DNA of 64,000 nt from Escherichia coli (GTDB lineage Bacteria > Pseudomonadota > Gammaproteobacteria > Enterobacterales > Enterobacteriaceae). The notes under the pieces were generated by a model, which was not told the origin of the DNA, ran no database searches, and saw only the letters and a program-made list of their open reading frames with translations. Position 1 is the first letter of the stretch, and the number at the start of each line of letters is the position of its first letter. Location: NCBI RefSeq assembly GCF_003334315.1, contig NZ_QOWR01000001.1; one strand, 5' to 3'. Positions 4,699 to 28,384 of the stretch are shown here, in pieces. A program made the position numbers and the translations under genes.

Positions 4699-4898
4699 TC
4701 CACAACCAAACTCATAATATATTCCGGCAATATTTATCACTTCATTAACAACTGAAACCTTAATTAAACATTAGCCAGTCCGGGTAATTCACTATTCGAA
4801 TTATATTTTCGCTGCGATATAACCTTGAGCCACATCAACATTGAGTCAGATTATTATTCAAACCAACATTCGCACACATTTTAAGTATTGCTGATAGA

Positions 4899-4936
4899 AA
4901 CCATTCTCATTATCATTGTGTTGTTGATTATTTAAT
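4899..4936 (+). promoter_or_regulatory. Fur-box-like and FNR-like motifs in feoABC promoter region
   Basis: ATTCTCATTATCATTGT (Fur-like) immediately followed by TTGATTATTTAATC (TTGAT-N4-ATCAA-like) about 100 nt upstream of feoA. Confidence 0.5.
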
Positions 4937-20697: not shown

Positions 20698-21717
<1,020 letters not shown>

Positions 21718-22944
21718 TTATCCTTTTACGCACACCACCTGACGCAGGGTATAGATAACTTCCACCAGATCGCTTTGTGCCGCCATCACCGCATCAATAT
21801 CTTTATACGCCATCGGGATTTCGTCGATCACTTCGGCATCTTTACGGCATTCCACATGCGCGGTGGCACGAATTTGATCTTCCACGCTGAACAGTTTTTT
21901 CGCTTTAGTTCGGCTCATTACCCGCCCGGCACCGTGGCTGCACGAACAGAACGACTCTTCATTTCCCAGCCCACGGACGATAAAGCTTTTTGCTCCCATC
22001 GAACCGGGAATAATTCCATATTGACCAGCACGCGCAGACACCGCGCCTTTACGCGTCACGTAGATCTCTTCACCAAAGTGCTGTTCTTTTTGCACATAGT
22101 TGTGGTGACAGTTGATCTCTTCCATCGCCAGCGTTTGTGGCTGTCTGACCGTTTTCTGCGTAATGCTCTGCAATGCCGTTACCACGTTTTCCATCATCGC
22201 ATCGCGGTTAAGGCTGGCAAAAAGCTGCGCCCAGGCCACGGCTTTCAGGTAATCATCAAAGTATTCCGTACCTTCCATAAAGTACGCCAGATCACGCGAC
22301 GGCAACGTCTCAAGCGTTTCCTGCATCTCTTTTTGTGCCAGATCGATAAAGTAAGTCCCGATGGCGTTACCAATTCCGCGTGAACCGGAGTGCAGCATAA
22401 TCCACACCTGGTCCGACTCATCAAGGCAGATTTCAATAAAGTGGTTACCGGTTCCCAGCGTTCCCAGGTGTTTATAGTTATTGGTATTCAGGAAACGGGG
22501 ATATTTTTGCGTTAACCACTGATAACCGGCTTCAAGCTCAGCCCATTTAGCATCGACGTTAACAGGTGGATTTTCCCAGGCACCTTTATCACGTTTACAA
22601 CGGCCAGTGGTACGCCCGTGCGGCACGGCCGTTTCAATCGCCTGACGCAGCTCTGCCAGGTTTTCAGGCAGGTCTTCCGCCGTTAACGCGGTACGCAGCG
22701 CGTTCATTCCACAGCCAATATCCACGCCCACCGCCGCCGGAATAATCGCCCCTTTGGTCGGGATCACGCTACCAATGGTGGAACCTTTACCCAGGTGTAC
22801 ATCAGGCATTACCGCAATATGTTTGAAAATAAACGGCATCTTCGCCGTATTAATAAGTTGCTGACGCGCATCGGCCTCTACCGGCACGCCTTTGGTCCAC
22901 ATTTTTACCGGGGCATTTTCAGTGGTCAGTAATTCGTAATTCAT
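21718..22944 (-). CDS. rtcB: RNA-splicing ligase RtcB
   Basis: 408-aa ORF MNYELLTTENAPVKMWTKGVPVEADARQQL... Confidence 0.95.
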   Translation of the reverse strand: MNYELLTTENAPVKMWTKGVPVEADARQQLINTAKMPFIFKHIAVMPDVHLGKGSTIGSVIPTKGAIIPAAVGVDIGCGMNALRTALTAEDLPENLAELRQAIETAVPHGRTTGRCKRDKGAWENPPVNVDAKWAELEAGYQWLTQKYPRFLNTNNYKHLGTLGTGNHFIEICLDESDQVWIMLHSGSRGIGNAIGTYFIDLAQKEMQETLETLPSRDLAYFMEGTEYFDDYLKAVAWAQLFASLNRDAMMENVVTALQSITQKTVRQPQTLAMEEINCHHNYVQKEQHFGEEIYVTRKGAVSARAGQYGIIPGSMGAKSFIVRGLGNEESFCSCSHGAGRVMSRTKAKKLFSVEDQIRATAHVECRKDAEVIDEIPMAYKDIDAVMAAQSDLVEVIYTLRQVVCVKG

Positions 22945-22982
22945 TTTGTTTTTCTCTTTTCGTTGTTTGCTGTCCTGATAAT

Positions 22983-22998
22983 TGCAACCGTCGTGCCA
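22983..22998 (-). promoter_or_regulatory. Sigma-54 (-24/-12) promoter for rtcBA
   Basis: Minus strand reads CTGGCACGACGGTTGCAA = TGGCAC-N5-TTGCA, about 40 nt upstream of the rtcB start; flanked by AT-rich IHF-like tract. Confidence 0.8.
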
Positions 22999-23132
22999 GA
23001 AAATTAAATAAGCAGCTTAATTTTTTAATTCATTGTTTTAAAAAAGATTATATCTTTACGTCCGTAACCGGAGATTTCCCGCAAAGCCAATTTACCGATA
23101 ATGAAATATCGTCTTTTATAAGGATATCTAAG

Positions 23133-24731
23133 ATGCGTAAAACAGTGGCTTTTGGCTTTGTCGGTACCGTACTGGATTATGCCGGGCGCGGCAGTCAGCG
23201 CTGGTCAAAATGGCGTCCGACACTCTGTTTATGCCAGCAAGAATCGTTGGTCATCGATCGACTGGAATTGTTGCACGACGCCCGCTCGCGCTCGCTATTT
23301 GAAACGCTTAAACGCGATATCGCCAGCGTTTCGCCAGAAACAGAAGTGGTGAGCGTTGAGATTGAACTGCATAACCCGTGGGATTTCGAAGAGGTCTACG
23401 CCTGCCTGCATGATTTCGCCCGTGGTTACGAGTTTCAGCCAGAAAAAGAAGACTATTTAATTCACATCACCACCGGTACCCACGTCGCGCAGATTTGCTG
23501 GTTTCTGCTGGCAGAAGCGCGTTACCTGCCCGCCCGGCTGATACAATCTTCACCTCCGCGCAAAAAAGAACAGCCGCGCGGCCCAGGTGAAGTAACGATT
23601 ATCGATCTCGATTTAAGCCGTTATAACGCCATCGCCAGCCGCTTTGCCGAGGAACGCCAGCAAACGCTTGATTTTCTTAAGTCCGGCATTGCCACGCGTA
23701 ACCCCCACTTCAACCGCATGATTGAGCAGATCGAAAAAGTGGCGATCAAATCCCGCGCGCCGATTCTGCTTAACGGTCCAACCGGCGCGGGCAAGTCATT
23801 TCTGGCGCGACGCATCTTCGAGTTAAAACAGGCGCGGCATCAGTTTAGCGGCGCGTTTGTGGAAGTGAACTGCGCCACCCTGCGCGGCGATACCGCCATG
23901 TCGACGCTGTTTGGTCATGTAAAAGGCGCGTTTACCGGGGCGCGGGAATCTCGTGAAGGTTTATTACGCAGCGCCAACGGCGGAATGTTGTTTCTTGATG
24001 AGATTGGCGAACTGGGCGCAGACGAACAAGCAATGCTGCTAAAAGCCATTGAAGAGAAAACCTTTTACCCGTTTGGCAGCGATCGCCAGGTGAGCAGTGA
24101 TTTTCAGCTTATCGCCGGAACGGTGCGCGATTTGCGCCAGCTGGTTGCCGAAGGCAAATTCCGCGAAGATCTGTACGCGCGGATCAATCTCTGGACCTTC
24201 ACCCTGCCGGGGCTACGCCAGCGCCAGGAAGATATTGAACCTAACCTGGATTATGAAGTGGAGCGCCACGCCTCACTCACCGGCGACAGCGTGCGTTTTA
24301 ACACCGAAGCGCGGCGTGCCTGGTTGGCTTTTGCGACCTCTCCCCAGGCAACATGGCGCGGTAACTTTCGCGAACTTTCTGCCAGCGTCACGCGGATGGC
24401 CACCTTTGCCACTAGCGGACGCATCACTCTGGACGTGGTTGAAGATGAGATAAACCGTCTGCGCTATAACTGGCAGGAGAGCCGCCCCTCCGCGCTTACG
24501 GCGTTGCTGGGCGCAGAGGCAGAAAACATCGATCTCTTCGACCGTATGCAACTGGAACACGTTATCGCTATCTGCCGCCAGGCAAAGTCGCTTTCCGCAG
24601 CCGGACGCCAGCTTTTTGACGTTTCGCGCCAGGGCAAAGCCAGCGTCAATGACGCGGATCGGCTACGCAAATACCTGGCGCGTTTTGGTCTGACGTGGGA
24701 AGCCGTGCAGGATCAGCACAGCTCCAGTTGA
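23133..24731 (+). CDS. rtcR: Sigma-54-dependent transcriptional activator RtcR (N-terminal CARF-type sensor, AAA+ core)
   Basis: 532-aa ORF; AAA+ Walker A GPTGAGKS and GAFTGA motif (HVKGAFTGA); divergent from rtcBA. Confidence 0.93.
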
Positions 24732-25471
24732 ATATGGTGGTCCGTCAGCACCTGCATCACGCTTACTGGCGGCGGGGCGTCGGTGTAGACGGCATCTACC
24801 ATGCTGATGCTGCCCATATTGACCATCGCGTTACGGCCAAATTTCGAGTGATCGACAACCAGCATAACGTGGCGCGAGTTCTCAATAATGGCGCGTTTGG
24901 TGCGAACTTCGTGGTAATCGAACTCCAGCAGCGAGCCGTCGCTATCGATGCCGCTTATCCCCAGAATGCCGAAATCAAGGCGGAACTGGGAGATAAAATC
25001 GAGCGTCGCTTCGCCAATGATCCCGCCATCGCGGCTGCGTAATTCGCCACCGGCGAGAATAATGCGGAAATCTTCTTTTACCATCAACGTGTTAGCAACA
25101 TTGAGATTGTTGGTGACAATACGCAAATTGCTGTGATTAAGCAGCGCGTGCGCCACCGCTTCCGGCGTGGTGCCGATATCGATAAACAGTGTCGAGCCAT
25201 TGGGGATTTGCTCCGCCACTTTGCGGGCAATCCTCTCTTTTTCTTCGGTCTGGGTGGCTTTACGATCGTGCCACGGCGTGTTAACCGAACTGGAAGGCAG
25301 CGCCGCACCGCCATGGTGACGCAGGATCAGGTTTTGCTCCGCCAGCTCATTGAGGTCGCGGCGAATAGTCTGCGGGCTGACGGAGAAATGCTCTACCAGC
25401 TCTTCAGTACTGACATAACCCTGCTGTTTAACCAGTTCGATAATACCGTTGTGACGTTGTGTTTGTTTCAT
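24713..25471 (-). CDS. glpR: DeoR-family glycerol-3-phosphate repressor GlpR
   Basis: 252-aa ORF MKQTQRHNGIIELVKQQGYVSTEELVEHF...; 3' end overlaps rtcR 3' end. Confidence 0.95.
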   Translation of the reverse strand: MKQTQRHNGIIELVKQQGYVSTEELVEHFSVSPQTIRRDLNELAEQNLILRHHGGAALPSSSVNTPWHDRKATQTEEKERIARKVAEQIPNGSTLFIDIGTTPEAVAHALLNHSNLRIVTNNLNVANTLMVKEDFRIILAGGELRSRDGGIIGEATLDFISQFRLDFGILGISGIDSDGSLLEFDYHEVRTKRAIIENSRHVMLVVDHSKFGRNAMVNMGSISMVDAVYTDAPPPVSVMQVLTDHHIQLELC

Positions 25472-25487
25472 TTATAAATCCCTGGAA

Positions 25488-26330
<843 letters not shown>

Positions 26331-26362
26331 TTATTCCACACAAAAGGGGACAGTATAAAGCG

Positions 26363-26767
<405 letters not shown>

Positions 26768-26827
26768 TTATACATATCACTCTAAAATGTTTTTTCAATG
26801 TTACCTAAAGCGCGATTCTTTGCTAAT

Positions 26828-26845
26828 ATGTTCGATAACGAACAT
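26828..26845. promoter_or_regulatory. GlpR operator (perfect palindrome) in glpE-glpD divergent region
   Basis: ATGTTCGATAACGAACAT read directly, about 35 nt upstream of the glpD start. Confidence 0.75.
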
Positions 26846-26878
26846 TTATGAGCTTTAACGAAAGTGAATGAGGGCAGC

Positions 26879-28384
26879 ATGGAAACCAAAGATCTGATTG
26901 TGATAGGGGGCGGCATCAATGGTGCTGGTATCGCGGCAGACGCCGCTGGACGCGGTTTATCCGTGCTGATGCTGGAGGCGCAGGATCTCGCTTGCGCGAC
27001 CTCTTCCGCCAGTTCAAAACTCATTCACGGTGGCCTGCGCTACCTTGAGCACTATGAATTCCGCCTGGTCAGCGAGGCGCTGGCTGAACGTGAAGTGCTG
27101 CTGAAAATGGCCCCGCATATCGCCTTCCCGATGCGTTTTCGCCTGCCACATCGTCCGCATCTGCGCCCGGCGTGGATGATTCGCATTGGTCTGTTTATGT
27201 ACGATCATCTGGGTAAACGCACCAGCTTGCCGGGATCAACTGGTTTGCGTTTTGGCGCAAATTCAGTGTTAAAACCGGAAATTAAGCGCGGATTCGAATA
27301 TTCTGACTGTTGGGTAGACGACGCCCGTCTGGTACTCGCCAACGCCCAGATGGTGGTGCGTAAAGGCGGCGAAGTGCTTACTCGGACTCGCGCCACCTCT
27401 GCTCGCCGCGAAAACGGCCTGTGGATTGTGGAAGCGGAAGATATCGATACCGGCAAAAAATATAGCTGGCAAGCGCGCGGCCTGGTTAACGCCACCGGCC
27501 CGTGGGTGAAACAGTTCTTCGACGACGGGATGCATCTGCCTTCGCCTTATGGCATTCGCCTGATCAAAGGCAGCCATATTGTGGTGCCGCGCGTGCATAC
27601 CCAAAAGCAGGCCTACATTCTGCAAAACGAAGATAAACGCATTGTGTTCGTGATCCCGTGGATGGACGAGTTTTCCATCATCGGCACCACCGATGTGGAA
27701 TACAAAGGTGATCCGAAAGCAGTGAAGATTGAAGAGAGTGAAATCAATTACCTGCTGAAAGTGTATAACGCGCACTTTAAAAAACAGCTTAGCCGTGACG
27801 ATATCGTCTGGACCTACTCCGGTGTGCGTCCGCTGTGTGATGATGAGTCCGACTCGCCGCAGGCTATTACCCGTGATTACACCCTTGATATCCATGATGA
27901 AAACGGCAAAGCACCGCTGCTGTCGGTATTCGGCGGTAAGCTGACCACCTACCGAAAACTGGCAGAACATGCGCTGGAAAAACTGACGCCGTATTATCAG
28001 GGTATTGGCCCGGCGTGGACGAAAGAGAGCGTGCTGCCGGGTGGTGCCATTGAAGGCGACCGCGACGATTACGCCGCTCGCCTGCGCCGCCGTTACCCGT
28101 TCCTGACTGAATCGCTGGCACGTCACTACGCGCGCACTTACGGCAGCAACAGCGAGCTGCTGCTCGGCAATGCGGGAACGGTAAGCGATCTCGGGGAAGA
28201 TTTCGGTCATGAGTTCTACGAAGCGGAACTGAAATACCTGGTGGATCACGAATGGGTCCGCCGCACCGACGATGCCCTGTGGCGTCGCACAAAACAAGGC
28301 ATGTGGCTAAATGCGGATCAACAATCTCGTGTGAGTCAGTGGCTGGTGGAGTATACGCAGCAGAGGTTATCGCTGGCGTCGTAA
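26879..28384 (+). CDS. glpD: Aerobic glycerol-3-phosphate dehydrogenase GlpD
   Basis: Track ORF 26864..28384; recognised start METKDLIVIGGGINGAGIAADAAGRG (FAD-binding GxGxxG). Confidence 0.95.
   Translation: METKDLIVIGGGINGAGIAADAAGRGLSVLMLEAQDLACATSSASSKLIHGGLRYLEHYEFRLVSEALAEREVLLKMAPHIAFPMRFRLPHRPHLRPAWMIRIGLFMYDHLGKRTSLPGSTGLRFGANSVLKPEIKRGFEYSDCWVDDARLVLANAQMVVRKGGEVLTRTRATSARRENGLWIVEAEDIDTGKKYSWQARGLVNATGPWVKQFFDDGMHLPSPYGIRLIKGSHIVVPRVHTQKQAYILQNEDKRIVFVIPWMDEFSIIGTTDVEYKGDPKAVKIEESEINYLLKVYNAHFKKQLSRDDIVWTYSGVRPLCDDESDSPQAITRDYTLDIHDENGKAPLLSVFGGKLTTYRKLAEHALEKLTPYYQGIGPAWTKESVLPGGAIEGDRDDYAARLRRRYPFLTESLARHYARTYGSNSELLLGNAGTVSDLGEDFGHEFYEAELKYLVDHEWVRRTDDALWRRTKQGMWLNADQQSRVSQWLVEYTQQRLSLAS

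Follow-up and report, generated by a model that had tools for sequence, protein, structure and literature searches.

Convergent genes whose 3' ends share bases are well documented in Escherichia coli, where Huvet and Stumpf counted 663 overlapping adjacent pairs, 75 of them convergent (PMC4161906). Prokaryotic pairs of this kind that arise by stop-codon displacement or run-on have short shared 3' ends, and one partner carries an unconserved C-terminal extension that is read antisense from the other; the minimal type shares only 4 nt (TTAG/CTAA). At the level of transcripts, Conway et al. (2014) found complementary 3' ends, overlapping by 286 nt on average, at 276 of 370 (~75%) convergent operons of E. 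coli (PMC4161252), and Rho-limited transcripts at convergent operons appear both there and in the work of Adams et al. (2021; PMC7815308). Many other convergent pairs carry a leaky bidirectional hairpin, as do glpR and malT in most other Enterobacteriaceae. Finally, excludon or functional cis-antisense pairs such as arfA/mscL (PMC10070815) are opposite-strand neighbors with long complementary stretches, of hundreds of nucleotides, in their transcripts, and with reciprocal effects demonstrated by experiment. We analyzed the junction of rtcR and glpR in a 64,000-nt stretch of E. coli DNA (hereafter the window) and found that nothing essential separates it from the first class, except that its shared segment of 19 nt is longer than the minimal 4-nt type, which was seen at the same junction in Superficieibacter electus. 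The reach of the glpR-strand transcript into rtcR (~334 nt as against the genome-wide mean of 286 nt) is like that of the Rho-limited operons. Unlike the pairs with a leaky hairpin, the two coding sequences touch and no intergenic terminator is present. The resemblance to excludon pairs lies in the complementary transcripts of opposite-strand neighbors, but our literature searches found no reciprocal effect for rtcR/glpR, and its arrangement is evolutionarily dispensable.

The first-pass annotation had placed the stop codons of rtcR and glpR inside each other's coding sequence with about 19 nt shared, and this was confirmed to the nucleotide by the sequence and the list of open reading frames (Table 1). 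On the plus strand, the shared segment contains the last base of rtcR codon D527, codons 528-532 (Q H S S S) and the rtcR stop; on the minus strand, it contains one base of glpR codon I247, codons Q248-C252 and the glpR stop, whose TGA appears as tca on the plus strand at 24713-24715. By its sequence the window is E. coli. An 801-nt query spanning the junction matched all 5426 complete E. coli genomes, with strain CP53 being 100% identical, while a 65-nt query centered on the overlap was present in 5422 of the 5426. The RefSeq records of CP53, K-12 MG1655, GN02461, YDMW_2, AHB2 and CUVET20 all carry this 19-nt overlap; in MG1655, rtcR lies at 3558268..3559866 and glpR at 3559848..3560605, the latter marked as a pseudogene. 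The overlap is genuine and, being part of the reference annotation, was already known. Neither partner is a shadow ORF: both are genuine, conserved genes, their opposite-strand 3' ends share bases, and the arrangement persists in related genomes.

Table 1. Features of the rtcR/glpR junction and of the surveyed loci. Positions are those of the window, except where a survey locus (L) is named.
Feature	Position	Strand	Description	Basis
rtcR	23133..24731	+	ATG ORF, 532 aa, stop TGA 24729-24731; sigma-54-dependent activator of rtcBA	NF038308, Pfam, RefSeq
glpR	24713..25471	-	ATG ORF, 252 aa, intact; DeoR-family repressor of the glp regulon	NF008154, Pfam
Shared stretch TCAGCACAGCTCCAGTTGA	24713..24731	both	19 nt; third codon positions coincide	
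RtcR run-on tail Q H S S S, residues 528-532	24714..24728	+	antisense to GlpR L-E-L-C and stop; outside the NF038308 match	
Variable RtcR end, residues 523-527 (E A V Q D)	24699..24713	+	adjoins the overlap	alignments
Imperfect palindrome AGCTGTGC-TGATCCT-GCACGGCT	24701..24723	-	around the glpR stop; 8 pairs on minus-strand RNA	fold
Untranslated glpEGR transcript extension	24379..24712	-	antisense to the 3' part of rtcR; ends in the Rho region peaking at 24379	PMC7815308, MG1655
rtcR-remnant loci	L028 4760-4900; L054, L068 4760-4800		downstream of glpR	
YrlA/YrlB inserts	L032 8159-8400; L038 8133-8506; L045 8091-8409			Rfam

The pseudogene label on MG1655 glpR puts a sequence or annotation problem on record at this locus, which raises the question of whether the overlap is an artefact of one wrongly called stop or gene. 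That defect, however, is a 1-nt deletion at glpR nt 151 (window 25321) that shifts the frame far from the 3' end, and it is absent from the intact gene studied here. The stops leave no choice, as each ORF runs to its first in-frame stop, and no corrected stop that would remove the overlap exists. GlpR matched its NCBIfam model NF008154 with 553 bits (cut-off 331) over residues 1-252 and the full 252 positions, that is, to the last residue, whereas RtcR matched the equivalog model NF038308 with 852 bits (cut-off 650) over residues 1-527, up to profile position 529 of 530. Pfam confirmed the domains, RtcR and Sigma54_activat in RtcR and HTH_DeoR and DeoRC in GlpR. With the junction sequence also present in 5422 genomes, the chance of an annotation artefact is vanishingly small, and the sequence itself already refutes it.

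The two protein ends differed in their history. In a survey of 80 Enterobacteriaceae loci, for which one genome per species was scanned, the GlpR C-terminus was QLELC-stop in 78 of the 80 species irrespective of the downstream gene; 71 of these carry malT or another gene, not rtcR, downstream of glpR. In the two Pseudocitrobacter species, GlpR was two residues longer and read past the usual stop. Since the QLELC-stop end is kept whatever lies downstream, the GlpR end is ancestral and constrained, with the RtcR tail read from its antisense strand. The RtcR tail, on the other hand, is unconserved, as judged by the boundary of the NCBIfam profile and by three variant tails. The segment just before the overlap was the most variable part of the junction in our alignments: RtcR residues 523-527 had substitutions among E. 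coli alleles (AV, AM, TM), and other genera had either 9 nt inserted or 7 nt deleted there. The 19 nt of the overlap itself were invariant in the five divergent E. coli alleles that we compared.

The geometry of the codons accounts for this segment. Written on the plus strand, the glpR codons are TCA, GCA, CAG, CTC, CAG, TTG and AAT, and those of rtcR are (GA)T, CAG, CAC, AGC, TCC, AGT and TGA, so that the third codon positions of both genes are the same bases. Because of this sharing, each gene can drift synonymously at little cost to the other, which is the arrangement of maximal synonymous freedom; the single overlap change seen in E. whittamii (glpR CAA to CAG, rtcR AGT to AGC) was silent in both. 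The rtcR frame reads through the glpR stop to its next in-frame stop because the complement of TGA falls in frame with the sense codon CAG, and the rtcR stop TGA is itself the complement of glpR ATT-CAA (Ile-Gln). With TAA or TAG as the glpR stop, translation in the rtcR frame would have ended immediately. The overlap was 19 nt long in Escherichia (three other species included), Klebsiella oxytoca and K. spallanzanii. In S. electus it was 4 nt, where glpR ends in TGT TAG and RtcR ends in ...KEMAN-TAA without the tail, and in Intestinirhabdus alba it was 35 nt, where RtcR ends in ...ISTAPAEYGDR (...AISTAPAEYGDR), which replaces the QHSSS tail, because the linker is shorter by 7 nt and rtcR is thereby shifted to another frame. 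The length of the overlap calls for nothing beyond chance, as the first in-frame stop simply lies five codons on. We considered whether the glpR 3' end had been transferred together with the rtc genes, which would explain the identical overlap codons, but any such transfer does not reach far into glpR, because K. oxytoca GlpR keeps the Klebsiella-type tail TDNNLQLELC and not the Escherichia type. The L-E-L codons of glpR were CTG GAG CTG in all seven rtcR-adjacent species as compared to 28% of 71 species without rtcR, a bias that points the other way and could reflect weak selection on the RtcR tail, although it is weak evidence, as it represents only ~4 independent lineages and several alternative codons would be silent in rtcR.

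The statement that the gap holds no intrinsic terminator proved correct, as there is no intergenic space and hence no room for a classical intergenic one. A scan of 3.8 kb around the junction reported four sites, as against 4.7 expected from shuffled sequence; none was at the junction and the nearest, on the minus strand at 24544-24530, had a weak 5-pair stem. Intrinsic terminators placed inside the opposite coding sequences were rejected on the same two counts. A further candidate was the imperfect palindrome around the glpR stop (Table 1), which might act as a hidden bidirectional terminator that holds the stop in its loop and ends both transcripts. Its 8-pair stem on the minus-strand RNA speaks for such a role, as does the finding that both 200-nt flanks fold somewhat better than shuffled sequences (z = -2.5 and -3.3), but neither strand has a U tract, the plus-strand RNA has a C-A mismatch, and the terminator scan did not report the palindrome. 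Other E. coli alleles have a changed left arm (AGCCGTGC to AGCAATGC or AACAATGC), the arm differs in other species too, and the palindrome is absent from the RNAalifold consensus. Moreover, Adams et al. have no 3' end for MG1655 positions 3559400 to 3560599 in their curated Term-seq tables (PMC7815308). The combination of a GC-rich hairpin with an upstream A tract and a downstream U tract that marks a bidirectional intrinsic terminator was not found here; we judge the stop-codon hairpin, conserved neither within E. coli nor across genera, to be due to chance, and it is extremely unlikely that it ends the two transcripts. Conserved RNA structure downstream of the glpR stop likewise had no covariation support among eight rtcR-bearing junctions (RNAalifold term +1.66, unfavorable), and a permissive Rfam search of 22800-26900 yielded no known RNA family, its only match being a chance lncRNA hit (E = 0.83).

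Termination by Rho is better documented on the glpR strand. Adams et al. (2021) reported a bicyclomycin (BCM)-sensitive Rho termination region at MG1655 position 3559514 on the minus strand, antisense to rtcR (supplementary file 2), with 154 reads upstream and 29 downstream without BCM and 153 and 256 reads with it, giving a Rho score of 8.9 (p 2.7e-27) (PMC7815308). With an offset of 3535135 between MG1655 and the window, this corresponds to window position 24379, inside rtcR and 334 nt beyond the glpR stop; the regions were called in 800-nt windows, so that their resolution is coarse (PMC7815308). The position may differ in a glpR+ strain, because most of MG1655 glpR is untranslated after the frameshift. 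In a simple composition test for a rut site, the C/G ratio peaked at 1.40 over the 80 nt that follow the glpR stop and was ~1 elsewhere, with 1.50 as the 90th percentile of the window. The transcriptional read-through proposed earlier was thus borne out on the glpR strand, the part that the published Rho region covers. The supplements of SMRT-Cappable-seq mention neither rtcR nor glpR. One may ask whether the Rho-limited glpEGR extension is a conditional regulator of RtcR. If it were, lower Rho activity or higher glpEGR transcription would let the antisense RNA cover most of rtcR, RtcR would be lowered through transcriptional interference or cleavage of double-stranded RNA, and the status of the glycerol regulon would be coupled to the threshold of the Rtc RNA-repair response; we consider this a very long shot.

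We also examined how the locus is set in the family. In most Enterobacteriaceae glpR converges with malT across a gap of -4 to ~+120 nt, which usually holds a GC-rich palindrome, REP-like (GCCTGATAAGCG...CATCAGGC) or terminator-like; CCCTCTCCC...GGGAGAGGG was also seen (loci L010-L086, at about 4757-4900 past the end of glpR). Raoultella and K. pneumoniae have a hairpin across the malT stop, and the 3' ends of glpR and malT share 4 nt in Enterobacter sp. kpr-6 (L031). Of the 80 species, the only ones with the rtcR-rtcBA block between glpR and malT are those of Escherichia, K. oxytoca, K. spallanzanii, S. electus and I. alba. In K. michiganensis, K. grimontii and an uncultured Enterobacteriaceae genome, what follows glpR is a remnant of the rtcR 3' end. 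Within E. coli, a deletion joins rtcA to the 3' part of rtcR in strain AVS0467, and another runs from inside glpR into malP in NCTC11023 (loci L004 and L005). Since remnants persist in relatives and deletions occur in E. coli strains, the adjacency of rtcR and glpR is dispensable, having been lost repeatedly with glpR unchanged. In Superficieibacter sp. 1612_C1 (L029 4760-7201), rtcB and rtcA are co-directional and lie directly downstream of glpR, and rtcR was not detected. In I. alba, S. electus and K. spallanzanii, a ~2-kb insert between rtcR and rtcB carries YrlA/YrlB Y-RNA-like genes that scored above the Rfam gathering score (Table 1). Such a layout (rsr-yrl-rtcBA) is of the Salmonella type; YrlA/YrlB are missing from the E. 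coli window.

Across 21300-25500, patches of rtcB, rtcR and glpR were 92-96% identical between E. coli strains, with the lowest values at 24301-24700, and 24300-25100 had only 90-95% identity in 1232 of the 5426 E. coli genomes. Divergence this high is unusual within the species and suggests mosaic recombination at the locus. On the plus strand at 21262-22383, antisense to rtcB/rtcA, there is also an arginine-rich ORF of 373 aa with a TTG start, which is probably a shadow ORF of the GC-rich coding strand.

The first-pass annotation went further and read the junction as antisense interplay of the glp repressor with a regulator of RNA repair. Such functional coupling would be excludon-like, with complementary RNAs or colliding polymerases reciprocally tuning the glp repressor and the RNA-repair activator. 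Some observations are consistent with it: transcription of the glpR strand runs at least ~330 nt antisense into rtcR and extends far more when Rho is inhibited (the downstream reads given above), rtcR and glpR are adjacent in four genera, and the overlap bases are unchanged across the E. coli alleles compared. Against this, the 3' transcript overlap is like that at the 276 of 370 convergent operons cited above (PMC4161252), and the antisense RNA is normally curtailed by Rho. The length of the coding overlap varies among species, the rtc genes have been deleted repeatedly with glpR unchanged (the remnants in Table 1 and the two E. coli deletions), and no conserved structure was found; neither sequence nor structure of the antisense segment was conserved beyond coding need. 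Our searches of the literature on rtcR with glpR, and on glpEGR, found nothing on the overlap, on a reciprocal effect or on a functional link, and no paper joining the two regulons functionally. The proposed interplay was therefore not upheld. We regard reciprocal antisense control as very improbable; nothing supports a specific regulatory tie of RNA repair to glycerol control, and the comparative data argue against one.

The best explanation is that the overlap is a product of stop-codon geometry and not a regulatory device. We give a probability of about 0.88 to an ordinary tail-to-tail overlap, in which a run-on C-terminal tail of RtcR covers a fixed glpR end and Rho-dependent termination occurs inside the opposite gene. 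By this account, the GlpR C-terminus and its stop would be ancestral and fixed, and the functional part of RtcR would end at about residue 527, past the C-terminal DNA-binding region. The rtcR frame would then meet the complement of the glpR TGA as ...GAT CAG..., a sense codon, and RtcR would gain the five codons of its tail, antisense to glpR L-E-L-C, before reaching its own TGA. Transcripts of glpEGR would continue untranslated beyond the glpR stop, antisense to rtcR, and be ended by Rho a few hundred nucleotides downstream, as we infer for this strain from the published MG1655 data; the rtcR transcript would presumably end by the same sort of factor-dependent or leaky termination inside glpR. 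Overlapping coding sequences and transcript read-through are both typical of E. coli. Two of roughly nine convergent pairs in the window overlap in the CP53 annotation, the second being yhhA (+, 51030..51470) and ugpQ (-, 51457..52200), which share 14 nt at 51457..51470.

For work on the locus, the overlap means that altering the 3' end of either rtcR or glpR, by deletion or by a tag, changes the partner gene, so that 24713-24731 has to be kept intact when RtcR is tagged C-terminally or glpR is cleanly deleted. Genome recoding must duplicate such overlaps first; TCC, which rtcR has at 24723-24725, is among the codons targeted in the published 57-codon design. The glpR frameshift of MG1655 matters when transcript data from that strain are used at this locus. 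The overlap carries little biological weight; it is a clean example of a convergent overlap arising and changing in length (4, 19 and 35 nt) through a single choice of stop codon or a small indel.
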